A DNA stretch of 64,000 nt from a bacterium (GTDB lineage Bacteria; Patescibacteriota; UBA1384; 2-12-FULL-50-11): positions 108,638 to 172,637 of the forward strand of contig JAJTYJ010000002.1 in assembly GCA_021463485.1 (NCBI GenBank). Direction: 5' to 3'. Made by a program: the position numbers and the translations under genes. Numbering within the stretch: the stretch's first letter is position 1; each line of letters opens with the position of its first letter. This document shows positions 7,492 through 41,838 of the stretch, piece after piece. Below the pieces are notes generated by a model. The model was not told where the DNA came from and ran no database searches. It saw only the letters and a program-made list of their open reading frames with translations.

Positions 7492-8471
7492 TATTGAATA
7501 ATCCGTCGAGGCGGACGCGGCTGAACTTGTTGTGGCGGAATGGTATTGACGTACTCTTTAAGTTTGGCGCGTTTGCGACGTCGAGTAACGATGAGCGTGC
7601 TGATAATAAGAAGCAGCGCGATGATCGCGATAATCAGCCAAAGCGGAATAACTATAAAAGTTCGGTTAGCGACTAACTGCTGCTCTGGAAGCCCATAAGT
7701 TAACGCTAACGATGCGGTAAATTTACCCATTGTTTTCCAGTCGAACTCCCAAGTGTTGTTAAAGCGTCGCTTGCTCTCTGGTAGGACATTGCTGTTTCCC
7801 TCGTTAACTTTAAGCGTTTGAACGACGTTACCGGACCAGTTTCTTATCTTTATCTCGCCGACCGGCTTCGAGTGGATGTTGCCGACGTTATTAATGCGAG
7901 CTGAGAAATTCGCCGGCGGGCTAATCAGAAAGACCGGCGCGTCAAAATCTTCTAGTAATAGTTTTTCGGTAATATCGCCCGGAACTGTTACCAGCAGCAG
8001 TGTGCCGACCAAACCGACAACGCCAATTTGGCTTACGTCTTCGTCAAGTTTTGGCTCTTCGGTAGAAAAGAGGATTGCGCCGTAATGCCCGCCCGGTTCG
8101 GCGTTTGCTGGGGCGGTAATGGTAACCTCAAATTTTTCTTCTTCGTTTGGCTCGATCCGGAGGAACGGCTTTGAGAACGTTGCCCAACTCGAGAGTGCGT
8201 AGGTTGAGTATTTCTCTTCTTCAGTAAAAAAGACCGGTTTACCGCCGTCGTTATCGGTATGAAAATTCATAATCCGCGGATACAGCGTCATCGATCGAGT
8301 AATCGGATTAATCACCCGTACGGTTCTGGTGACTGACTGTCCGGGGCTAACGACAAACTCGTCTTTAACCGGAGTTACTGTAATACCCGCCGCTCCGTTT
8401 TGAGCAAATGTTGAGTTAGAAAACGTTGCTAGAGTTAACAGCAACAAGGTAGCTGCCAGGAATCTATGCAT
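7491..8471 (-). CDS. DUF916/DUF3324-like cell-surface protein with C-terminal membrane anchor (CscA-like topology)
   Basis: Signal peptide MHRFLAATLLLLTLATFSNSTFA, then a beta-rich ectodomain of about 270 aa, then a single C-terminal TM (IPLWLIIAIIALLLIISTLIV) followed by RRRKRAKLK and a Pro-rich tail. The family assignment is based on topology only. Confidence 0.4.
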   Translation of the reverse strand: MHRFLAATLLLLTLATFSNSTFAQNGAAGITVTPVKDEFVVSPGQSVTRTVRVINPITRSMTLYPRIMNFHTDNDGGKPVFFTEEEKYSTYALSSWATFSKPFLRIEPNEEEKFEVTITAPANAEPGGHYGAILFSTEEPKLDEDVSQIGVVGLVGTLLLVTVPGDITEKLLLEDFDAPVFLISPPANFSARINNVGNIHSKPVGEIKIRNWSGNVVQTLKVNEGNSNVLPESKRRFNNTWEFDWKTMGKFTASLALTYGLPEQQLVANRTFIVIPLWLIIAIIALLLIISTLIVTRRRKRAKLKEYVNTIPPQQVQPRPPRRIIQ

Positions 8472-10729: not shown

Positions 10730-11818
10730 CTAAAATATTCCGGTGCAAACGTATGTTACTGTATCGCTGTAGGCGCCTGACGGCGCGAGATTTGAAACAG
10801 CCATTTTATGTGTGACCGTAACGATGCCGTTATTGATCGGACCGGCAGTACTCGCTAACTGTTGGCTTGCTCCAGCGCCAACCTCTAACCCGCCGACGGT
10901 GTTGCCGGTTTGGTTGTAGCGCGTGGCGATAGAGAGAGTGGCGCTACCAGCGTCTCCTTGGGTAGCGGCGCCTTGAATGCCGAAGCCGTCAACGTTATTT
11001 GAGAGCGTAGCGGTGTCGGCAAACGACGAGTTGGCGGAGCCGATCAAATACGTCGGTGCGCTACCTTTATATAGTCCCGGACTAGTCCCGTTGCCGTTGT
11101 CGTAGACGCTAATACTCAGCCCATTTGGCGCGTTCGTACCAGCAGTAACGGTTGTATTAGTTGCAGCCGTAATTATTACGCCGGTAGCGTCGGGGAAAGT
11201 AACTGTTAGCCCGTTGAAGGCGCAGCTGATTCTTGGCAACACGGCAACGCTTACGGTTGCGTCGTTGTCAGCGACGATCTCAAGTGCTAACGTTCCCGAT
11301 CCGCCGAAGGTTCCGCCTAGCGTTACCGTTGGGTCGGTGTCGTTCTGAGCTGCGGTTTGGTTAATGATTTGGTCGTTTCCAGTAGCACTAAAGGTTGCGT
11401 GAGTACCGATTTCGATAACAATAGTTGAGGAGCTAGCGATGCTGGTACTGCCAGTACAGAGGGTAAATGTGAAAGCGCTGTTATTAATGGAGGTGATATC
11501 AATTTCGTTTGCGGAGCACAGCCCGTTTGCGGTTATAGCCTTATCGACGCCGTCGTCGGTAATGTCAAAATCTTCTGGCTCCGTATTGGCAAATCCGGTG
11601 GTATCGAAGCTATTCGGAAAGTCTATAACCAACGTCTCGCCCGCGTCCCAAGAGTCGTTAATCGTAAACGTTAACGTATGATTGGCAGCGGTACTTTCTT
11701 TGATTGTTGATAGCGTATCTGAGAAATTACTAACTGTCGCTGCAAGCGCAAATTGGTTCGTTGGAAATAGGGTAGTAACAACGAGCGAAGCAATACTGAA
11801 CGCTCGCAACCAACGCAT
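10730..11818 (-). CDS. Secreted surface protein, paralog C (C-terminus …VTYVCTGIF)
   Basis: Signal peptide. Its N-terminal block (VSNFSDTLSTIKESTAANHTLTFTINDSWDAGETL…FANTEPEDFDITDDG) is nearly identical to that of paralog B. The start overlaps the stop of the giant gene (TAATG). Confidence 0.55.
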   Translation of the reverse strand: MRWLRAFSIASLVVTTLFPTNQFALAATVSNFSDTLSTIKESTAANHTLTFTINDSWDAGETLVIDFPNSFDTTGFANTEPEDFDITDDGVDKAITANGLCSANEIDITSINNSAFTFTLCTGSTSIASSSTIVIEIGTHATFSATGNDQIINQTAAQNDTDPTVTLGGTFGGSGTLALEIVADNDATVSVAVLPRISCAFNGLTVTFPDATGVIITAATNTTVTAGTNAPNGLSISVYDNGNGTSPGLYKGSAPTYLIGSANSSFADTATLSNNVDGFGIQGAATQGDAGSATLSIATRYNQTGNTVGGLEVGAGASQQLASTAGPINNGIVTVTHKMAVSNLAPSGAYSDTVTYVCTGIF

Positions 11819-14800
11819 TAGAACGTTCCGGTAACGATATATAAGACTTCGGTCTGGTAATTTTTTGCAGCTTGCAAGGCATCAACAGCAACTTTGTGAG
11901 TGATGGTGAACACTTCGTTAGTAACTGGACCGGTCGCGCCAGTGACGGCGTCGGTGTGATCGGCGACGATATCGCCAAATGCTGCAGTAGCAAATGATGC
12001 ATACAGCGTGCCGCTACTGAATTTATTCGAGCCCTGAATTGTCGTGTCGTTACTTGTATAGCCGTAGCCGCAGTTCGAACCGCCCGTGCAGAATCCGCCC
12101 GGCCATGATCCAGGTGAAGCGTACGTACCACCCTGGAACATAGGGATAGTAAATGAACCGTTTGTTAGCAAGCCGGTGGCGTATTGCCTGATGACGTAAC
12201 CGCCGTAGGCGTTGGTACTGGTAGTTAGGTTGAGGGTTTTGCTATCAGTTCGATTATTTCCGTCGTTGAGGTTCGAGAACGTAACAGTGGTCGAACCAAG
12301 CGTTAAGCTGATAGTTGGCAAGACGTCCTGACCGTTGGAACTGTGAACGCTTGAGGTATTACTAGCGTTGTCGATTGCTCGAACGTTCACGTAGTAGCGC
12401 TGGTTTGTGTGTAGACTTAACCCCGCTTGTGTTGTGTCCTCGTTGGTTCCGTTATTTGTCCAAGTAAGTATATCGGTTCCGCCGGCTGTTGTACCGATCG
12501 ATACATCGTAACGCAGCAGTCCTGAGGCACCACAACTGAACGCATCCCAGTTGGCTGTTAATTCCTCGAGCGACCCGTCGTTAAACGCAGCGTCGACGTC
12601 TTCAACTAAGCCGTCGTATATTGTCCCAGCGTACGTGCAGGCAGTTGTATCTACGCCAAAGTCTCGAGCCGACTCAGCGTTACCGCCGTAGCTTACCCAA
12701 GATCCGTATACTCCGCCCTGATCTTTAACTCGTGCTTGCCAGTGGTACTCGCTCACGTCTGTTATTCCGCTAATCGTGACCGTAACGGTAACTGGTGTAC
12801 CGGAGTACGCAACGCCAGTTCCGCAAAGATCCTCGGTGTTACTGAAACCAGTGCCAAGTAAGTCTTTTTCAACGCATAGGTATAAAGTGTCGGAAGAATC
12901 AGTGTCTGAGGCTGTTGCTGTAAATTTAACACTCGTTTCATTGGTCCAACCTCCGGTTGCGATCACGGTATCGTTGGTTTTTTTCTGGGCTAAGTCGCTT
13001 GGCGCGTCCGGATTACTAAAGTTCCAATTTACGTTATTGCCACAATCAAAATTTGTTCCGTCGTTTGCCATGATCGTATTGCCGCTCGAGGCGTTCGATC
13101 GAGAGACGTTAACGTAACTAACCGCAGTTTGAGTGCCCGATACGTTCAAATTCCACGATCCGCTGACGGCGCTGTTGCGGAAGTATAGTCTGGTACCGAC
13201 GGCTTGACCGTTCCAGTTGATATTCGTCAGTGTGTACGTAGAACCGGAATTAAACTCTATGCGAGAGCTGGCAGTAGTGAAAACGGTGTTATTGGTTACT
13301 GTCGCTGAAGCAGCGAAGTCAATACCGGCGACAAATCCGGTTCTTTCGCAATCGGATGCGTTAGTGCCTGAGCTGTTAGTGATTGTAAGATTGTAAAATG
13401 AGCTGGACCCAGTCATTAACCCACTTAATGTTTGAGTACTCGTTCCGTTTAATACAACAGTTCCAGTATTAGCATTCAATACAGCATTATTGGTGTTAAC
13501 CCAGTTTCCGCCGACGTTTAGTGTTCCGGATCCGAGTGTCAGTATTGCTGTTGTTGTCCCAAAAGTTACATTACCAGTAACAGTTACCGTATAGCCGTTG
13601 ATATCTATCTCAGACGCGCGACTGCAACAACCAATTAGGAAGCTTGTGAATGAAGCGTTGCCCTGGAAAATTGTTTTAAAACCAGTGTTTTGCTCCGTTT
13701 GAAGACCAGAATTATATGTGAATGCGGGAATATTTTTATTGTTTGATCCGTATGGCGCATATGCGCCGTTACCAGTTCCCCAAGTTCCGGAAGGATTAAG
13801 GTTTAAGAAATTCGCGTTTGTACCAGAATTGTAGAGTAGTCTTGAGTTTAGATCGAATGTTCCCGTTCCTAGGTTGATTTGGTTTTCAACACCAAATGTT
13901 TGCATCATCCGTGTGGTGTTGCCCGATTGCCCAACTGTTAGGTTGTAAAATCGGTGCTGCCAGACGTTTGTTGATCCGGTAGTTATCGTTTTTGTCCCGG
14001 TACCGTTCATAACTACTGTCGACGTCCCTCGAACGAACGATGCGTCGTCAGCGCCAATAGCTGATGTATCCCAGTTACCAGAGACAGTAATGGTGGCGGC
14101 CCGTGCTTGGAACGTCCAGGTACCTGAAGTTCCTGTGAAGTTGTTATCGACCGTTAGGGAATAGTTTGATCCGTTAACAGTGTCATACACACCATTAGTG
14201 ATCGTAAAGTTGTTATTAACGTCTACGGCGGCAGTTGGGGTTAGAGTTCCGCCAGCGGCATTAAGAACCATATTATAAAGAGATTGTCCGTTGGGGGCAT
14301 AGCTAACGGTACCGGAAGTGTTTGTCCAAGTTAAGGTGGAGGTTCCTTCGGTTACCGTAAAAGTACCCGTGCCGTTAACGAATCTAACATTACCCTTAAT
14401 ATTGATATCCGCGCTTGACAAATTTAAAGAATGACTTCCACCGTTTGAAACTGGGAATAAAGCATTACTTGTTCCATTCTCAAGTGTAACGGTACTCGAA
14501 CCGAAGTTACTGGCGATAGCAGTCGTGTTAGAACTGTGACCGGTTGAAAATGATTTGGCTGTCAAGTTAAAGTTTTGTGTGTTGAAATTCGATCCAGCAC
14601 CGCCACTAGCCGCCCAAACAAGAACCGTCCCAGTTGTTGTTACGTTTCCCGAAAGGTTGAATGTAACCGTACTGGCCGTATCGGCACGTAGTAGGATATT
14701 CCAGGTGCCGTAGTTACCGCTGGCGATGGAGATGGTGCTGGCACTTTGCTTGCGCAAATGAAAGGTAGCATTTGAACCCGACAGAGTTGCTGAACCATCG

Positions 14801-17800
14801 ATAGATAGGTCGCTACCACTGGTTCTAAATAGCTCAAATTCGCAAGTTACAGAACAAGTCATAATCCCAGCATTAACGGTTAAGGTATTATAAACATCAG
14901 TTCGCGCAATTGTCATAGTTGTTGTTTGACTGGTCGAGGCAACACCAAGATTATGAAATTGAGTAAAGCCTCCTCCCGTTGATTTGATTTCACCTGTACC
15001 GGTAAGGTTAACTGTAGAGGCTCCCCGAGAAAAACTACTGGAATTACCCTTGTCCCAGTGTCGACCAACACTTATTGTTGAGCCATTTGCGGTAAAGGTT
15101 ACTGATGCGCTATTGGCTAAGGTAAAATCTCGCCCGACCGTGAGAGAATAGTTGGTTCCACTGGTGGAAAAGGTTCCCAAGCTGACAGTAAAATCGTTCT
15201 CTGTTTCAGTATTTGCTCCCAAAGTCCAGCCACCACCCGAACCGTTAAAAACTAAATGATTAAATTTGCCGGTTGAGCCGGATAGGGTGCCGCTGAGAGT
15301 CCTTCCGGTTGTGGTTGAGTTAAAGGTAGCTGTACTGGTGCCAGCGGTGAAAGTGCCGTCGTTCTGCCAGGAGCCGCTGACGTTGATAGCATTAGAATCG
15401 GCTATCCAAGTACCATCATTCTCGACGTGAACTGTAGTTACATCGGCTCCGCCGCCGGAGGCCGGGCGGAAAGTATTGCCGGTTACTATGTATAGCTCCT
15501 CGTCGGTATATGAGCCGAGCGAATCGACCGTTAAGTCGTCGCCGGCGGAGACATCGAAGAATATATCTTCATCGCTGGAAACGGAGTTGTCGTAAGAGCC
15601 AAGGTCAGTATTGCTCAACGTCTGGTTGTCGGCCGAACCAATCGTTAAATGGCGATGAAACAGAACCACGCCGGTAATATCACCGCTTCCGTCATATTTT
15701 GTGACGGCGACGGCCTCCTCGCTGTCGGTCGTTTCGCCGTTAATGAAAACTGTAATGATATCACCGCTATTGGGTTTATTAACACTAGAAATTTGCCAGG
15801 AACCATCGACGGTGGTGTCAACCTGCGCTTGGAGAGAGCCATTAACTGCAACAGCAATTTCATTAGCGCCGTCGTCGGTGCAGTCAGTAGTTTGATCGTA
15901 TTGGTCACAAGTACCGGAAATATTAATTGGAGGCGATACTGTGTAATCAATTAATAACCAAAGGGCTGTAACCCTAACGGTTCCACTTGAGCTAAGTACA
16001 TCTCGAACGCCAATTTGAGCAGAGTCTAATTGAGTATCAGTCCAAGCCGATGCCATTTCTGGCCTGGTGTAAGCGGTCAATGGATAAAGTTTTGGATCGG
16101 CGGTTCCATTAGTTGTCCAAGTAGTTGAGTCCGGTGAAAGGATAGTTGATTCAATAGCAATGCCCGACGACGATTCTTTCAGCCGGACTTTAAAGTCCTC
16201 CTGTGTGGCAGAACTTGTGCTAAATCTGACACCGACTGAAACTAAATTAACAGTATCGCTTGCCCCAATACTAGAATCAGTAATGTTGTATTCGTCGATA
16301 TCGTCGCTAGTTGTTTCCGATACGTAATTAGTGGCGTCATTGGGGGTTACCTCGTCAACACAAGCATAATTTCCGCCCGTACAGGTGCCGTTAGTTGTCC
16401 AGTTGGCAGCGGAACCGGCTGTGTTTGGCCGGAGATGAATAATTTTCCCGTCGCCTGGCCAAGTATTCTGATTTGTACCGATTCCCTTATTGACCGCAAT
16501 ATCATCCCAGATAAACCCTCCTTGATTGTTACTAACTTCTGAATTGTCACTTGCGTTGATCCCAATTCCCAAACGCGCAACCCCAGTTCCAATACTACGA
16601 GTTGTGGAGCTAGCAAAGGAAGTACCATCAATCCTTCCATCAACAATATGTGAACCCGACGAGCCAGTTGTATCTATCCGTAGTTCAATTCGGTACCAAG
16701 TGCCGGTTGATAGGGCCGATGAAGCCGAGCCAACCTGGCTATCTTCATCAAATAATTTCAGGGTATTGGACGAAGTGATTTTTATTGCTGCCCTTTGCAG
16801 GTTACTCGTATCCAAAAATGACATGATGGTGGCATCAAAAATATCCACAGCTGTAGATATCCGAAAGTAGGCACGACCATAGTAGTCCCCGTTCGTGTTG
16901 CTGGATTCAAAATAGTAGCGAACGTATTCCTGCCCGCCACCATTTTCAGTCTCAAGTGAGTATGCACCGGATCGAACTGTACTACTATTTATGGAGGGCG
17001 AGTTGGTAACGGCCGTTACTTCCACACCGGCAGTGGCCGAGTTGAGCTCTAACCCACTGGAGATTAATCTGCCACCGGTGAGAGAAACGTACTCTACTTG
17101 GAGCCAGATGGCCGTCATTTTAAAGCCGGTCCCGTTGGGATCATCGTTGCGAATACCAATTTGAGCAGAATCTAAATTGGTAGTAGTCCACTGGGTAGTG
17201 CTACTGCCCGGCAAGTCATAAATAGTAAGGGCGTTAAGACGAGCCGTATCGTCGTTGTTAGTCACATACCCGCCAATTAGATCATCAATTCCGGTGGAGG
17301 CACTCTCTTCAGTGGTACCGCTAGCGCTAGCTTTGATGCGAGTCTTGTAATTAACATCTCCATTGCCAATCGAGCAAGCCGGCTCTGGGATTACTGCTCC
17401 GCAGATTCCGAAACGAGCGCCGACAGAAACTAGTTTAATGTAATCCCCGGCAGAAATACCGGCGTTTGAGGACGACTCCAGGTTAACATCGTCAAGCTGG
17501 TTTTGGGTGGTACTGCGGATAAAGTCGGTGCTGTCGTTGGGGGTGACTTCATCGACGTCGTCGTAATCATTAGTATCACTGGGATAACCGCCCCAGGCGG
17601 TATTGTCTCCGTCGGCATCGGGTTGCATATGAACAATATTGCCTTCGCCCGGCCAGTTATCAGTTGAGCGGCCTGACGAATTGTTGACAGCAAGATCATC
17701 GAAAAATAAATCGGCCGTGGTCGAGTTTGCCACTCCCCATGTCCACCTATCCACGCCTGCTGCTAGATTCTCCGAAGACGATGTAGAGATTTGGGTACCG

Positions 17801-18423
17801 TCAAGCAACATCGTTGCAGTTGTCGTTGAAAGCGTAGTTGTATTAATATAGACCTCTAAGCGGTACCAGGTGTTTGTTGAAAGTGCTGAACTGGCGGAAC
17901 CAATGTTAGCATTATCCTCTTCATTTCTAAGCTGGAGAGTTGAGGAACTGCTCATGCGGACGCTGATTTTTCCGCTCGATCCATTACCAATTTGCATAAT
18001 ATAGGTGTCTGCACCAGGCGCGGTCGCAATTCTAATATATTGTCTAAACCAAAATTTGTTGCTTTGGGCGCTGTTAGCCCAAGTCTTGTAGATTGTTCCA
18101 GTTGAAGATGTGGGGTTTGCCCTAAATGCATAATCTCCGCTTCGCTTTGTTGAGCTAGAAACGGACACAGTTCCCGCTGATCCGGTAATCTCTACGTTGG
18201 CAGTAAGTGTGTTTAGTTCGGCGCCGCTCGACCAAAGCCGGGTAGCGCTAGCTGAACCAGCCTCACCGAGGATTGTTCGGGGAAAAACTCCATTAACAAT
18301 TAAACTGATGAGGAGCAAGAAAGTAATAGCTGCTGCACCCAAACGAGGCGCTTTTCTGACGATTTGGAGCCTGCGTAAATCCCGAAACAGGCCATCGAAG
18401 CGCTTTTTAGTTTTCCCCTCCAT
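11818..18423 (-). CDS. Giant (2201 aa) cell-surface protein: N-terminal signal anchor, two LamG/ConA-like jellyroll modules, long T/S/G/N-rich beta-repeat region, C-terminal domain shared with the three paralogs (…VLYIVTGTF)
   Basis: 6.6-kb uninterrupted ORF. There are internal duplicated modules (TWYRLEVYINTTT…FFDDLAVNN…NWPGEGNIVHMQP and TWYRIELRIDTTG…IWDDIAVNKG…TWPGDGKIIHLRP). The C-terminal ~170 aa match the paralog C-terminal domain (…ITHKVAVDALQAAKNYQTEVLYIVTGTF). Confidence 0.6.
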   Translation of the reverse strand: MEGKTKKRFDGLFRDLRRLQIVRKAPRLGAAAITFLLLISLIVNGVFPRTILGEAGSASATRLWSSGAELNTLTANVEITGSAGTVSVSSSTKRSGDYAFRANPTSSTGTIYKTWANSAQSNKFWFRQYIRIATAPGADTYIMQIGNGSSGKISVRMSSSSTLQLRNEEDNANIGSASSALSTNTWYRLEVYINTTTLSTTTATMLLDGTQISTSSSENLAAGVDRWTWGVANSTTADLFFDDLAVNNSSGRSTDNWPGEGNIVHMQPDADGDNTAWGGYPSDTNDYDDVDEVTPNDSTDFIRSTTQNQLDDVNLESSSNAGISAGDYIKLVSVGARFGICGAVIPEPACSIGNGDVNYKTRIKASASGTTEESASTGIDDLIGGYVTNNDDTARLNALTIYDLPGSSTTQWTTTNLDSAQIGIRNDDPNGTGFKMTAIWLQVEYVSLTGGRLISSGLELNSATAGVEVTAVTNSPSINSSTVRSGAYSLETENGGGQEYVRYYFESSNTNGDYYGRAYFRISTAVDIFDATIMSFLDTSNLQRAAIKITSSNTLKLFDEDSQVGSASSALSTGTWYRIELRIDTTGSSGSHIVDGRIDGTSFASSTTRSIGTGVARLGIGINASDNSEVSNNQGGFIWDDIAVNKGIGTNQNTWPGDGKIIHLRPNTAGSAANWTTNGTCTGGNYACVDEVTPNDATNYVSETTSDDIDEYNITDSSIGASDTVNLVSVGVRFSTSSATQEDFKVRLKESSSGIAIESTILSPDSTTWTTNGTADPKLYPLTAYTRPEMASAWTDTQLDSAQIGVRDVLSSSGTVRVTALWLLIDYTVSPPINISGTCDQYDQTTDCTDDGANEIAVAVNGSLQAQVDTTVDGSWQISSVNKPNSGDIITVFINGETTDSEEAVAVTKYDGSGDITGVVLFHRHLTIGSADNQTLSNTDLGSYDNSVSSDEDIFFDVSAGDDLTVDSLGSYTDEELYIVTGNTFRPASGGGADVTTVHVENDGTWIADSNAINVSGSWQNDGTFTAGTSTATFNSTTTGRTLSGTLSGSTGKFNHLVFNGSGGGWTLGANTETENDFTVSLGTFSTSGTNYSLTVGRDFTLANSASVTFTANGSTISVGRHWDKGNSSSFSRGASTVNLTGTGEIKSTGGGFTQFHNLGVASTSQTTTMTIARTDVYNTLTVNAGIMTCSVTCEFELFRTSGSDLSIDGSATLSGSNATFHLRKQSASTISIASGNYGTWNILLRADTASTVTFNLSGNVTTTGTVLVWAASGGAGSNFNTQNFNLTAKSFSTGHSSNTTAIASNFGSSTVTLENGTSNALFPVSNGGSHSLNLSSADINIKGNVRFVNGTGTFTVTEGTSTLTWTNTSGTVSYAPNGQSLYNMVLNAAGGTLTPTAAVDVNNNFTITNGVYDTVNGSNYSLTVDNNFTGTSGTWTFQARAATITVSGNWDTSAIGADDASFVRGTSTVVMNGTGTKTITTGSTNVWQHRFYNLTVGQSGNTTRMMQTFGVENQINLGTGTFDLNSRLLYNSGTNANFLNLNPSGTWGTGNGAYAPYGSNNKNIPAFTYNSGLQTEQNTGFKTIFQGNASFTSFLIGCCSRASEIDINGYTVTVTGNVTFGTTTAILTLGSGTLNVGGNWVNTNNAVLNANTGTVVLNGTSTQTLSGLMTGSSSFYNLTITNSSGTNASDCERTGFVAGIDFAASATVTNNTVFTTASSRIEFNSGSTYTLTNINWNGQAVGTRLYFRNSAVSGSWNLNVSGTQTAVSYVNVSRSNASSGNTIMANDGTNFDCGNNVNWNFSNPDAPSDLAQKKTNDTVIATGGWTNETSVKFTATASDTDSSDTLYLCVEKDLLGTGFSNTEDLCGTGVAYSGTPVTVTVTISGITDVSEYHWQARVKDQGGVYGSWVSYGGNAESARDFGVDTTACTYAGTIYDGLVEDVDAAFNDGSLEELTANWDAFSCGASGLLRYDVSIGTTAGGTDILTWTNNGTNEDTTQAGLSLHTNQRYYVNVRAIDNASNTSSVHSSNGQDVLPTISLTLGSTTVTFSNLNDGNNRTDSKTLNLTTSTNAYGGYVIRQYATGLLTNGSFTIPMFQGGTYASPGSWPGGFCTGGSNCGYGYTSNDTTIQGSNKFSSGTLYASFATAAFGDIVADHTDAVTGATGPVTNEVFTITHKVAVDALQAAKNYQTEVLYIVTGTF

Positions 18424-18517: not shown

Positions 18518-19693
18518 ATGCAAATTTCGACAAAAAACATCTCCAAAACTCGTCTTCAAATAACCGCCGAATTTTCGGCAGACGATACTGCTCTACATTT
18601 TGATCGAGCAGTCACCAGACTAGGCCAGAATCTGAAGATTTCTGGGTTCCGCCCCGGAAAAGCCCCAAAAAACGTTATAAAAGATAACCTAGACTCTGAT
18701 TCCCTGCGCGAAGAGGCTTATAGCTTAGCCGTTCGCGATGCCTGGACAGATATCGTCAAAGAGCTAAAAGTTGTGCCAATTCAAGATCCGGAAGTTGAAA
18801 TTATTGAGTTCGATGAGGACAAACCATCGACGCTTCAATTTTCTTTCGATATTAGACCGGAAATTACAGTAAAAGGTTGGGAAAAAATTAAATTAGGCAA
18901 GGCGAAGCTCGAGCCGGTTACTGACGCGGACGTCGAAAAGGTTTTAGAGTCTTTATCTAAGGGGCACGCCCAAACAACTGTCACGCTTGAGAAGGCTGAA
19001 AAGGGCGATCGAATTGATGTTACTTTTGAAGGCTCAGTTGGTGGTGTTCGCAAAGATAAACTAACGGCGGCAAAATTTCCCGTGATGCTCGGCGAGGCCG
19101 GTGTCTTACCAGGATTTGAGAAAGAATTACCAGGCGTAAAAAAGGGCGATCATAAAAAATTTTCAGTGCCGTTTCCTAAAGATCATTACGATGAAGAGTT
19201 GGCAGGTAAGAGCGTTGATTTTTCGTTAACAGTAGATGAAGTTTATAAAATTGCGCTACCAAAACTCGATGACGAATTCGGTAAAAAATTTGGTCACGAT
19301 AGTCTCGAAGAATTGAAACAAGCGATTCGCGCTGAACTAGAAACTGAAAGACTGACCGAATACGAACAGTCGCGCCGTGCAGAGTGGCTGGCCGAGTTTG
19401 ATAAATGCATTAACGTTGAAGTGCCGGAAACCCTACTTCACTCAGAAGTTGAGCGCTCAAAAAGTGCTTGGCAGGCGTTCTTAGAAGAGCGGCATTTATC
19501 CTCGGAAGATTGGTTAAAGCGTCGGAAAGTTACGATGGAACAAATGGAGAAGGATTGGCGAACAGCCGCCGAAGCATCCGTTCGCGTTGGCTTGGGCTTA
19601 TCGCAGCTTGCTAAAGAACAGGGCAAAGAACTTTCAACCAACGACGATTTCCAAGAATATCTAAGCGAGTTGATCGAGAAAACTTTCAAGTAG
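18518..19693 (+). CDS. tig: Trigger factor
   Basis: N-terminal ribosome-binding region with GFRPGKAP motif; PPIase-like middle; length about 391 aa; sits upstream of clpP in the conserved tig-clpP arrangement. Confidence 0.8.
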   Translation: MQISTKNISKTRLQITAEFSADDTALHFDRAVTRLGQNLKISGFRPGKAPKNVIKDNLDSDSLREEAYSLAVRDAWTDIVKELKVVPIQDPEVEIIEFDEDKPSTLQFSFDIRPEITVKGWEKIKLGKAKLEPVTDADVEKVLESLSKGHAQTTVTLEKAEKGDRIDVTFEGSVGGVRKDKLTAAKFPVMLGEAGVLPGFEKELPGVKKGDHKKFSVPFPKDHYDEELAGKSVDFSLTVDEVYKIALPKLDDEFGKKFGHDSLEELKQAIRAELETERLTEYEQSRRAEWLAEFDKCINVEVPETLLHSEVERSKSAWQAFLEERHLSSEDWLKRRKVTMEQMEKDWRTAAEASVRVGLGLSQLAKEQGKELSTNDDFQEYLSELIEKTFK

Positions 19694-19719
19694 TACTAAC
19701 TTTTTGGAAACAAATTTGT

Positions 19720-19870
19720 GGAAACCAAGGGGCTTAATTGCGAAGCAGCCCCTATGGTTTCCACACCTTCCTTACCCTGCACGCTTTGGGAACACGTGGC
19801 CTGAAGCGTGCTTGGGGTGAGGGTGTCGGGAGAGGGGCAGCGCTTCGCAAGTAGCACCCCCTCTCCCGAC
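19720..19870. ncRNA. Candidate structured RNA: three consecutive perfect hairpins in a GC-rich intergenic block (identity unknown; SRP-RNA-like GAAGCAGC motif in hairpin 1)
   Basis: Hairpin 1 is ggaaaccaaggggc…gcccctatggtttcc (19720-19762). Hairpin 2 is gcacgctt…aagcgtgc (19779-19811). Hairpin 3 is gtcgggagagggg…cccctctcccgac (19826-19869). The region is conspicuously GC-rich compared with the flanking intergenic DNA. Confidence 0.3.
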
Positions 19871-19951
19871 AAATAAATATTGAATAATAACAACTTGATT
19901 GTTACTTAGATTATTGACTTTTTGTAAAGCAAACTTTACATTACCCATATA

Positions 19952-20545
19952 ATGAATAAAGAAGTACGTGGTAACTATTTGGTACCGATGGTGGTTGAGA
20001 AATCACAATTTGGTGAAAGAGCATTTGATATTTATTCTCGCCTACTACGCGATCGAATTATCTTTCTGGCCGGACCAATCGACGATAACGTTGCCAATTT
20101 AGTAATGGCCCAGCTACTTTTCCTGGAATCTGAGAACTCAAACCAAGATATCCAAATGTATATCAACAGCCCGGGCGGGTCGGTCTCGGCGGGCTTGGCT
20201 ATTTACGACACAATGAACCACATCAAGCCAGACGTTTCGACGATCTGCATGGGAATGGCTGCCTCAATGGGAGCGTTTTTACTCGCTGGCGGCACGAAGG
20301 GTAAGCGGTTCGCTCTGCCGAACGCGCGAATGATGATCCACCAAGTCATGGGCGGTGCCGAGGGTCAGGCGAGCGACATCGAAATCCAAGCGAAAGAAAT
20401 TCTCTATATCAAGCAGCGCCTTAATAAGATATTGGCTCAAAACACCGGGCAAAAGTTGGAACAAATCGAAAAAGATACCGACCGCAACTTTTGGATGGGG
20501 GGCGAAGAGGCCAAAGATTATGGTCTACTAGATAAAGTACTGTAG
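19952..20545 (+). CDS. clpP: ATP-dependent Clp protease proteolytic subunit
   Basis: The Ser active-site block [11 protein letters not shown] and the His/Asp region are present. Length is 197 aa. Confidence 0.92.
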
Positions 20546-24676: not shown

Positions 24677-25056
24677 TACAGACGTACTTTGCTGCTTTAA
24701 CAAGCGGGACCTTTGTTTTACCTACCACGGGAACAAAGGAGCGTAATCGCGAACATTTCGCGGTTACAAGAACAAACCAGCCGATGGACTGGCAAATTTC
24801 CATCCCTTTCTCGGTAAAACGAGAGAGTGCCAAACAATTCCAAAAAAACAAAACAGTATGTCAGCTGAAATGATTTATCATTTCGCTCGTAAGGTTCAGT
24901 AGGCTTTTATGTGAGTTAAATCTCAAAGAGTTTGACGAAGACGGTTTCGGCCGTCGGACACAAATTTCTTACCAAAAGGTAAGAGTTTGATCTGAGCACA
25001 ATTCTTCTGAAGAGTGCGAAGACAAACTCTCATAAAAATCCCTACAGGAATTTTTA

Positions 25057-26505
<1,449 letters not shown>

Positions 26506-26627: not shown

Positions 26628-26637
26628 TGCATATTCG

Positions 26638-26836
26638 TGGGCGATACTGGACTCGAACCAGTGACCTCGTCATTATACGCTGAGCGAACCGTTCAAATTT
26701 TGTCTGTGCGCGTACCTGGACTCGAACCAGGGACCTCGTCATTATCAGTGACGCGCTCTAACCAGCTGAGCTATACGCGCAAGGACAAAATTTGAATGTA
26801 TCAGTGACGCGCTCTAACCAGCTGAGCTAATCGCCC
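26638..26836 (-). tRNA. Split/intron-containing tRNA-Ile(GAU)-like gene: 5' exon 26798-26836, 125-nt insertion 26673-26797 at position 37/38, 3' exon 26638-26672
   Basis: 5' part is GGGCGAT-T-AGCTCAGCTGGTTAGAGC-G-CGTCA-CTGATA. 3' part is A-TGACG-AGGTC-ACTGG-TTCGAGT-CCAGT-ATCGCCC-A. The acceptor pair (GGGCGAT/ATCGCCC) and the T-stem pair (ACTGG/CCAGT) are perfectly complementary to each other and differ from those of the nested gene. The insertion holds the complete tRNA-Ile above, bracketed by the inverted repeat TTCAAATTTTGTC / GACAAAATTTGAA. Confidence 0.5.
26707..26780 (-). tRNA. tRNA-Ile (anticodon GAU), complete 74 nt, nested inside the interruption of a second tRNA-Ile gene
   Basis: Minus-strand cloverleaf: acceptor GCGCGTA/TACGCGC, D-arm TAGCTCAGCTGGTTAGAGC, anticodon stem-loop CGTCA-CTGATAA-TGACG, T-arm CCTGG-TTCGAGT-CCAGG. 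No encoded CCA. Confidence 0.85.
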
Positions 26837-27001
26837 TCGTTTCACTCGGGCGTTGCTTCGCAATCGCCCAATGGGCCGTTACTTTCGTAATCGCCTAAAC
26901 TATTAACCTGCCTGCTGGTGGCAAGTTACCAAACAATTGTACCGAATAATTGTCGTTCTATCCAGGTTCAGTTGGGGTAAATAATATGGCATACTACCGA
27001 T

Positions 27002-32273: not shown

Positions 32274-32346
32274 GGGCCGTTAGCTCATTTGGTAGAGCGC
32301 CGCATTTGCACTGCGGAGGTGTGGGGTTCGAATCCCCAACGGTCCA
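32274..32346 (+). tRNA. tRNA-Ala (anticodon UGC)
   Basis: Cloverleaf: acceptor GGGCCGT/ACGGTCC with the G3:U70 Ala identity pair, anticodon loop TTTGCAC, T-arm TGGGG-TTCGAAT-CCCCA. 73 nt, no encoded CCA. Confidence 0.9.

Positions 32347-38889: not shown

Positions 38890-41838
<2,949 letters not shown>

Follow-up and report, generated by a model that had tools for sequence, protein, structure and literature searches.

The locus considered here raises the question of what a GC-rich block of three hairpins is doing between the genes tig and clpP of a Patescibacteria genome. The block lies in a 64,000-nt stretch of contig JAJTYJ010000002.1 (assembly GCA_021463485.1), which is called the window below and whose first letter is position 1. 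The block is almost certainly a member of an interspersed repeat family and consists of two copies of one structured module, placed tail to tail in inverted orientation. The fuller statement, that it is an inserted, interspersed, GC-rich palindromic repeat of a Patescibacteria family (Berkelbacteria and relatives) with a putative barrier role, is held here as an evenly balanced judgement. The first-pass annotation of the window saw a real, non-random structure at this place and assigned it to the wrong family.

The family was recognized with a degenerate pattern of the inner stem and loop of the first hairpin (GGGGCNNNNTTGCGAAGCNGCCCC). It found 64 metagenome loci, about 54 of which were clearly homologous with the same architecture, and about 10 were chance matches in high-GC coding DNA. 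The family module begins with a covarying hairpin that has a purine-rich 5′ arm, a small internal loop, the inner stem GGGGC/GCCCC and the loop TTGCGAAGC. A pyrimidine-rich tail follows, whose end (T)GCACGCT is conserved. The foot of the hairpin follows G-Y-N-R-R-R across the family (GTGG, GTTA, GCAG, GCGA and others). The outer stem varies by copy yet always pairs, and GTGGAAACC, GTTAAAACC, GCAGAGGAC, GTGAGGGTG, GCGAGAACC and GTGGGGACC are each found with their complement. The nameable neighbour proteins cluster with proteins of Candidatus Berkelbacteria or with metagenome-assembled proteins labelled "Patescibacteria group bacterium".

The covariance model R1 (85 positions, 18 pairs) was made from 44 copies, with the forward copy of the window in the seed and the reverse copy outside it, and gave 102 matches in 565 kb of loci. 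In the alignment fitted to R1, 93.7% of the cells were paired and changes on both sides occurred in 15 of the 18 pairs. Compensatory cells numbered 342 versus 109 ± 13 in shuffles, and slid controls paired at 41–56%; these values come from related copies in an alignment fitted to the structure. In the MAFFT alignment made prior to fitting, 10 pairs already showed double changes. Covariation, which the first-pass annotation had proposed as a check, is strong in the family. Across the family the H1 pairs comprise 1083 Watson-Crick, 13 G-U and 38 A-C pairs.

No description of the repeat family was found in the literature searched, one 2026 paper on terminators included, and the phage, plasmid and viral collections contained no family match. 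Full-length members matched no Rfam family at the gathering score or at E ≤ 1. Exact scans of viral and metagenome collections with 18- and 19-mers of the H3 loop gave none, and these collections evidently do not hold this species.

R1 matched the window on both strands, which indicates that the third hairpin is an inverted and diverged copy of the H1 module. For this reason the H3 loop is the reverse complement of TTGCGAAGC, and because the two modules face each other, their tails are complementary and form the middle hairpin. The parts of the locus are as follows.

18518–19693, plus strand: tig (trigger factor) coding sequence, from the list of open reading frames and Pfam Trigger_N, FKBP_C and Trigger_C.
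19697–19717, plus strand: degenerate left-hand duplicate TAACTTTTTGGAAACAAATTT of the clpP promoter region TTGACTTTTTGTAAAGCAAACTTT, from the sequence and the alignment with three relatives.
19711–19797, plus strand: forward family module (H1 and tail), from R1 (78.9 bits, E = 8e-21) and folding.
19718–19764, plus strand: hairpin H1, from the sequence, folding and the family covariation of the outer and inner stems.
19765–19785, plus strand: pyrimidine-rich tail of the forward module, ACCTTCCTTACCCTGCACGCT.
About 19770–19822: hairpin H2, in which both module tails are paired, from folds and the copy alignment; both tails lie inside R1 matches.
19793–19877, minus strand: reverse, weaker family module (H3 and the tail ACCCTCACCCCAAGCACGCT, read on the minus strand), from R1 (46.8 bits, E = 3e-11).
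19824–19871: hairpin H3, with the perfect 14-bp stem TGTCGGGAGAGGGG/CCCCTCTCCCGACA, from the inverted-repeat listing.
19872–19913, plus strand: AT-rich spacer of the window lineage only, part of the insertion, from the alignment with L001, L015 and L017.
19914–19942, plus strand: clpP promoter-like site TTGACT-17-TACATT, from a promoter scan and the four-way alignment.
19952–20545, plus strand: clpP coding sequence, from Pfam CLP_protease (2.7e-86).

The spacer from the tig stop codon (TAG, 19691–19693) to the clpP start (19952) is 258 nt. The three adjacent hairpins fill 19718–19871 of it, with H1 beginning 24 nt after the stop codon. On the plus strand, 19700–19890 folds at −100 kcal/mol versus −58 ± 4.5 for shuffles (z = −9.3; none of 200 shuffles was as good), and on the minus strand at −91.5 kcal/mol (z = −8.5). 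The GC content reaches 0.62 within the block and is 0.31–0.32 immediately downstream. Together with the Pfam matches of both flanking genes, these values bear out the earlier description of a GC-rich triple hairpin between tig and clpP with AT-rich flanks.

In H1, the arms GTGGAAACCAAGGGGC and GCCCCT(A)TGGTTTCCAC form about 16 bp with a single bulge. They comprise the outer stem GTGGAAACC/GGTTTCCAC, the internal loop AA/TAT and the inner stem GGGGC/GCCCC, which closes a 14-nt loop, TTAATTGCGAAGCA. The string GCGAAGCAGCC, pointed out by the first-pass annotation, lies in this loop at 19740–19750, and the loop also holds the family-invariant TTGCGAAGC. H2 has a perfect 8-bp core, GCACGCTT/AAGCGTGC, and CCTTACCC/GGGTGAGG with G-U pairs extends the stem to about 22 bp around a loop at about 19787–19803. 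H3 carries TTGCGAAGC in its loop on the minus strand. The stem lengths of 14, 8 and 13 bp first given were essentially right, though slightly low. Four G-tracts at 19814–19837, in the 3′ arm of H2 and the 5′ arm of H3, read GGGG TGA GGG TGTC GGG AGA GGGG and form a G-quadruplex motif. The motif is stronger in other copies, for example GGGGTGGGGGTGAAGGGGGTAGGGG (L004, 8257–8281), and the opposite strand has C-tracts.

The tig-clpP locus of the nearest genomes within reach was compared with the window. These are L001 (Patescibacteria bacterium BroJett034), L015/L016 and L017, whose Tig proteins are 81–83% identical to that of the window. All of them have a tig-clpP spacer of 40 nt with the same clpP promoter and without the element. 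In the four-way alignment the window has about 216 extra bases (19694–19909) between the tig stop and the promoter block. The promoter block, ATTGAC(T/A)TTTTGTAAAGCAAACTTTACATTAC, has one variable position over the four genomes and is intact beside the insertion. The alignment thus indicates that the block is a lineage-specific insertion and not a conserved regulatory RNA of the tig-clpP unit, and that tig is separated from the clpP promoter by the insertion in one lineage only. Loss of the hairpins in relatives had been named beforehand as counting against a candidate RNA. They are indeed missing at this locus, but a large family with covarying stems exists at other loci.

The insertion is bracketed by direct copies of the promoter region. 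TAACTTTTTGGAAACAAATTT and the intact TTGACTTTTTGTAAAGCAAACTTT (19914–19937) are equal at about 19 of 24 positions, with one gap. At about 24 nt, this duplication exceeds the length of an ordinary target-site duplication, and the flanks of the copies in the window, L007, L009 and L012 share no short duplication.

Copies in close relatives were located by a protein-database search with spurious minus-strand open reading frames (ORFs) over the element, which gave four clusters. The other five reading frames of the element, joined into an 881-aa query, gave no match. Annotated "hypothetical proteins" of 49–81 aa, P0001–P0004, are ORFs across repeat copies (L007 10001–10174, L009 10001–10246, L012 4552–4719 and L013 6296–6445). 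A block of 68–69 nt made up of H1 and its tail, 98.5–100% identical, lies between a 2-hydroxyacid dehydrogenase gene and a tRNA in L007/L008. The same block lies between a class-Ib tRNA synthetase gene and a 209-aa gene upstream of groES/EL in L009–L011. The identity of L007 and L008 was not taken as element-specific conservation, since the element sits in an identical block of 750 nt, which is uninformative. In L012–L014 a release-factor gene is preceded by a shortened copy that consists of H3 and half of H2.

The rest of the element varies strongly between these copies. The H2 loop ranges from about 9 to about 70 nt and is also variable in sequence. The H3 stem is entirely different between copies (GTCGGGAGAGGGG, GAAGGGGGTAGGGG and GAGGGTAGGGGG), with the pairing always perfect. 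At the orthologous locus of L009 and L010 the whole H3 half is exchanged, with the breakpoint within the H2 loop.

Contigs that encode an identical Tig or ClpP end or begin inside H1 (L005 and L006, Logan contigs), and in L004 tig is joined, via H1, to a different downstream gene. At 8124–8345 of this Logan contig, tig and H1 are followed by an H2/H3 variant, TATAAAAATT, the 3′ half of a reversed H1 and the 209-aa gene. The order of H3, TATAAAAATT and a degenerate half-H1 is also seen in L012–L014. L004 may be either a mis-join through the common 69-nt block or a strain in which the element of the 209-aa locus is flipped relative to L009.

Over the whole family the copies behave as exchangeable occupants of intergenic sites. 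The compact inverted pair of the window is likewise found in L007, L009 and L010. Convergent pairs with 200–350 nt of further hairpins between the modules are found in L024, L029, L042, L059, L063, L066, L076 and L079. Inverted terminal modules, as in miniature inverted-repeat transposable elements (MITEs), are seen in the window, L007, L009, L024, L042, L059 and L079, in several pairs with one end much weaker. The contig with the convergent pair of L024 also carries a LOOT RNA at 12066–12185 (Rfam RF03000, 68.7 bits). The longer loci, on Berkelbacteria-type contigs, hold about one further copy per 10 kb. After RNase J genes with 96% protein identity (L034/L057) and after genes of a CvpA-family protein with 84% identity (L020/L051), the repeat members come from different sub-families. 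Orthologous genes are thus trailed by different sub-families, which suggests that the sites are kept and the occupants exchanged.

The spacers comprise 13 convergent and 11 divergent ones in addition to tandem ones. By crude ORF calls, the upstream neighbour was co-directional in 28 cases and opposite in 20, and tandem contexts had 6 sense and 6 antisense copies. A rule that the module always follows a co-directional stop codon was dropped on these counts.

The copies are confined to intergenic DNA, fall into genome-specific sub-families with covarying stems, often stand as inverted doublets, turn over at fixed sites and are present in some relatives but absent in others. Together these features point to a MITE-like repeat or to one like the repetitive extragenic palindromes (REPs) of Proteobacteria and their composites, bacterial interspersed mosaic elements (BIMEs) and REPINs. 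REP, BIME and REPIN sequences are short, GC-rich, imperfect palindromes that are non-coding, strictly intergenic and present in many copies. They also have genome-specific sub-families, stems that covary between genomes and a presence that differs between relatives. Their inverted pairs make larger hairpins, at gene 3′ ends and between convergent genes. The present family likewise consists of repeated extragenic imperfect palindromes, often in inverted doublets. The two groups have no sequence similarity, however. REPs have a 5′ GTAG and a plain stem, whereas here GTAG occurs only inside the H3 loop, the 14-nt loop has an invariant 9-mer and a conserved 3′ tail follows. The mirror-repeat nature of this tail, described below, is also foreign to REPs.

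The Correia/NEMIS elements of Neisseria and the pneumococcal BOX and RUP elements are similar in length (100–400 nt) and in being built of modules, with a variable central part between inverted ends. Their insertions lie near promoters or terminators and give stable RNA hairpins when co-transcribed, and BOX elements have modules in variable number. Correia elements differ in having 26-bp terminal inverted repeats and a TA duplication, whereas neither a target duplication nor a cognate insertion sequence was found here. MITE-like repeats differ in that the "ends" here are structured modules of 70–85 nt, which also occur alone and with a terminator-like hairpin. The kind of element, an interspersed palindromic repeat, is known, and the architecture, the breadth across the candidate phyla radiation (CPR) and the possible triplex are new.

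By analogy with REP, BIME and REPIN sequences, the window copy would have no tig- or clpP-specific role. A REP-like barrier or insulator role, rather than that of a dedicated trans-acting RNA, is given a chance of even or slightly below. Since no terminator separates tig from the element, tig transcripts probably run on into the copy and carry it at their 3′ end. When transcribed, three very stable hairpins would block 3′–5′ exonucleases and would impede read-through into clpP, a gene that retains its own intact promoter. Spread and persistence among intergenic sites might come about by recombination or conversion between copies, or by a trans-acting enzyme. At the functional level, "another small RNA" and a "processing/terminator array for tig", both listed by the first-pass annotation, may still describe the block.

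The specific idea of an intrinsic terminator for tig failed. The scan of 19694–19951 found none, and no hairpin has a U-tract 3′ of it, so the combination of a GC-rich hairpin and a U-tract is lacking. H3 is followed by AAATAAATATT, and terminators elsewhere in the window genome have the form AAAAAGACCC...GGGTCTTTTTT.

Several observations weigh against the reading as an inserted palindromic repeat with a barrier role. A clear target-site duplication is lacking, and the window shows only the imperfect promoter-region duplication. The 64-kb window has a single copy, that is, a low density in the window genome. A scan of eight ORFs that lie between copies or next to them showed only housekeeping or unknown products, with no transposase, no reverse transcriptase and no RAYT, the Y1 HUH transposase whose gene is typically flanked by REPs. 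No autonomous insertion sequence with module ends was seen in the 565 kb by eye and in a limited Pfam scan; no systematic search was made. The loop and tail are invariant over copies of 43–71% GC, and changes in the stem are mirrored by changes in the tail, which argues for a specific function, partner or fold beyond what a passive barrier needs. Many members also end in a conserved, covarying hairpin of A-run, stem and U-run, resembling a small RNA gene, and the window copy lacks one. Two side observations concern the family string in the window. TTGCGAAGC occurs 6 times versus 0.97 expected, and a small hairpin at 26848–26869, beside a tRNA cluster, reads GGGCG-TTGCTTCGCAAT-CGCCC and contains the reverse complement of the H1 loop string ATTGCGAAGCA; R1 did not call it.

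A different explanation places the function at the DNA level. The block would then be a non-autonomous mobile element (MITE- or REPIN-like) moved in trans, or else a site that binds a protein or adopts a non-B-DNA form (a cruciform or H-DNA), and its RNA structure would be incidental. This is judged rather unlikely. It agrees with the presence/absence differences between relatives, the identical 69-nt blocks at different loci and the missing orientation bias relative to genes. The shortened copies, the module swapping and the inverted pairs, which resemble long terminal inverted repeats, fit it as well. The stems have nearly no G-U pairs, and A-C exceeds G-U on the forward strand, so that by this measure H1 gives no signal of a forward-strand RNA. 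H2 of the window lineage, in contrast, favours the forward strand. Full-length copies of this lineage fold 0.6–9 kcal/mol better on the forward strand, with 5–11 G-U pairs versus 1–5 on the reverse, mostly in H2, which speaks against a purely DNA-level element. The absence of a transposase among the eight ORFs, the failure to find a target-site duplication and the frequency of unpaired single members with terminator-like 3′ hairpins speak against it too. The palindromic-repeat reading remains preferred.

One feature of the module goes beyond a palindrome. The first 5–8 bases of the tail are the mirror image of the end of the H1 3′ arm, and thereby complement the purine-rich 5′ arm in parallel orientation. 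Examples are TTCTCG-C-GCTCTT (L020), CCCTCA-C-ACTCCC (L072) and ACCCTCCACA/ACCTCCCA (L059). In the window the mirror is CCA-C-ACC in the forward module and CCCTCTCCCC/CCCTCACCCC in the reverse module (tails at 19765–19785 and 19805–19823). After the mirror part come a short spacer and a C-run that matches the inner GGGG stem. Over 40 distinct copies the longest mirror run had a mean of 4.35 versus 3.83 for the direct run (longer in 18 copies, equal in 15 and shorter in 7). When tails were permuted among copies the mirror value was 3.49 ± 0.14 and none of 5000 permutations reached the observed one. The parallel-complement score was 3.67 versus 3.12 ± 0.10 permuted (0 of 5000). In these statistics the copies are not independent, and runs of G and C are blind to orientation. 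Stem and tail change together by sub-family, as GAGGG/CTCCC versus GAGAA/CTCTT, and as CC in the window type versus AA in the AT-rich type.

To form an intramolecular pyrimidine-motif triplex, a helix of homopurine and homopyrimidine strands must be a mirror repeat, whether the triplex arises in single-stranded RNA or DNA or, within duplex DNA, as H-DNA; the DNA-level explanation draws on H-DNA. We know of no mutational process that makes such mirror repeats. The covarying mirror repeat could be the signature of a triplex, a lead rather than a result. Known pyrimidine-purine-pyrimidine triplexes (H-DNA, single-strand models of purine, loop, pyrimidine, turn and pyrimidine, and the MALAT1 and PAN elements for nuclear expression, ENEs) share with the module a purine arm, a Watson-Crick pyrimidine arm and a mirroring second pyrimidine tract. 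The arm order and the mirror symmetry suit a third strand parallel to the purine strand. In contrast to these systems, the present case comes from sequence pattern and covariation alone, and ENE-type helices have another geometry, with an A-rich tail clamped by U-rich loops. Caution is also advised because C+*G-C, a triplet of low stability at neutral pH, would make up most of the predicted triplets, because the turn at the mirror plane is very short and because the tail can pair in H2 instead.

The boldest form of this idea is that H1 and its tail are a fold new to bacteria. The tail would lie in the major groove of its own stem, in a triplex that switches with H2, kept by three-way covariation across Patescibacteria and recognized by a factor via TTGCGAAGC and GCACGCT, and the window would hold a fused pair. 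We consider this improbable. If it were true, the family would be among the most abundant structured motifs in CPR genomes, beyond selfish palindromes, and a real triplex would be a rare natural long intramolecular triple helix under selection in bacteria.

The tail also bears on the proposal that the module is a small structured RNA gene or the descendant of one. Its 5′ domain of H1 and tail, possibly a hairpin-triplex, would bind a conserved factor, and the window would hold a degenerate or fused pair. Stems that covary strongly beside invariant nucleotides in loop and junction are what a functional RNA usually shows, and the mirror covariation of tail and stem points the same way. Single modules on Berkelbacteria-type contigs have the fixed order of small hairpin, H1, tail, small hairpin and a conserved A-run/U-run hairpin. 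The base of this 3′ terminator-like hairpin covaries (AAAAACCGC/GCGGTTTTT versus AAAAAGTAAC/GTTACTTTTT), and members are retained after the same genes in different genomes.

The interior of the terminator-like hairpin is conserved as well (CUCGCUG ... CAUGGCUCG), about 130–180 nt after H1 and under the covarying A-run/U-run stem, which exceeds the needs of a plain terminator. It is present in L018, L020, L025, L029, L034, L035, L041, L049, L057, L058, L075 and L080.

Against a small RNA gene, the R1 matches imply tens of copies per genome, and these have no orientation preference. Only scattered promoter-like hexamers were seen by eye, in a few copies, upstream of H1 or of the preceding small hairpin. 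The window copy has neither the small 3′ hairpin nor the terminator-like hairpin and stands directly behind tig. G-U pairs are rare in H1, and close relatives have no element at tig-clpP. An RNA-gene origin is considered quite improbable.

Some other candidates were also rejected. Group II introns, retrons, IS200/IS605 ends and the twister, pistol, hatchet and hepatitis delta virus (HDV) ribozymes gave no model match and none of their defining features, judged in part by consensus sequences. For integron attC sites, the core sites R″/R′ (RYYYAAC ... GTTRRRY) are resembled only by the AT-rich sub-family (GTTAAAAC/GTTTTAAC), the genes beside the copies have housekeeping functions, and the copies show no orientation bias of the kind expected with an upstream cassette ORF. 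Coding of a peptide from an ATG before H1 in the AT-rich sub-family was dropped, since the frames are not conserved and the stems covary. A kissing loop between H1 and H3 (TTGCGAAGC versus GCTTCGCAA) was set aside, since the origin of H3 as an inverted H1 module is the simpler explanation and the complementarity is gone in L010/L011. For a pseudoknot between the H1 loop and the GCACGCT tail, there are only 3-bp complementarities, all between invariant bases.

The block is with virtual certainty not the signal recognition particle (SRP) RNA. That it is the SRP (4.5S) RNA or another housekeeping RNA of the genome, as first suggested, has practically no chance of being right. The sole support is the 9-nt string GAAGCAGCC, common to SRP domain IV, which is indeed present but in the loop of H1 and not in the domain-IV helix (helix 8). 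No covariance-model match was found at any threshold. The element recurs at three or more other loci, and the spacers of three relatives lack it; neither observation suits an essential single-copy RNA. Bacterial SRP RNA (RF00169) and the element have in common this string and a GC-rich hairpin. The string is presumably also present in the L11-binding hairpin of 23S rRNA. With Rfam 15 at the gathering score, the whole 64-kb window gave only rRNAs and tRNAs and none of SRP RNA, 6S RNA, transfer-messenger RNA (tmRNA) and RNase P RNA. At E ≤ 10, positions 19600–20000 gave only noise of the miRNA-hairpin type, and SRP RF00169/RF01854 were not matched.

Some other features of the window are recorded here. 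The 16S (25052–26503) and 23S (38898–41835) rRNA genes are unlinked and lie about 12.4 kb apart, with the 5S after the 23S. Between them are tRNA-Ile on the opposite strand, a tRNA at 32274–32346 and sequence of protein-coding length. The tRNA-Ile(GAT) at 26706–26780 (minus strand) is the only tRNA called there by ARAGORN and has partial duplicates around it (26637–26834): 26637–26676 resembles 26706–26745, and 26799–26834 resembles 26743–26778. These tRNA halves may be remnants of integration or rearrangement. Divergent from tig on the minus strand is a 2201-aa ORF (11818–18423) with no Pfam match on record. Direct repeats about 1.13–1.16 kb apart lie in it and just 3′ of it, over 8.7–17.2 kb, and its counterpart in L015 exceeds 3677 aa. 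Its product may be a very large, repetitive surface protein.

In the small, compact genomes of CPR/Patescibacteria an abundant intergenic element is unexpected. A covariance model of the family would improve annotation. It would explain spurious small ORFs such as P0001–P0004 and would flag assembly breaks and probable mis-joins such as those of L004–L006. The family also offers a route to study transcript ends and the spread of repeats in these hard-to-culture organisms.

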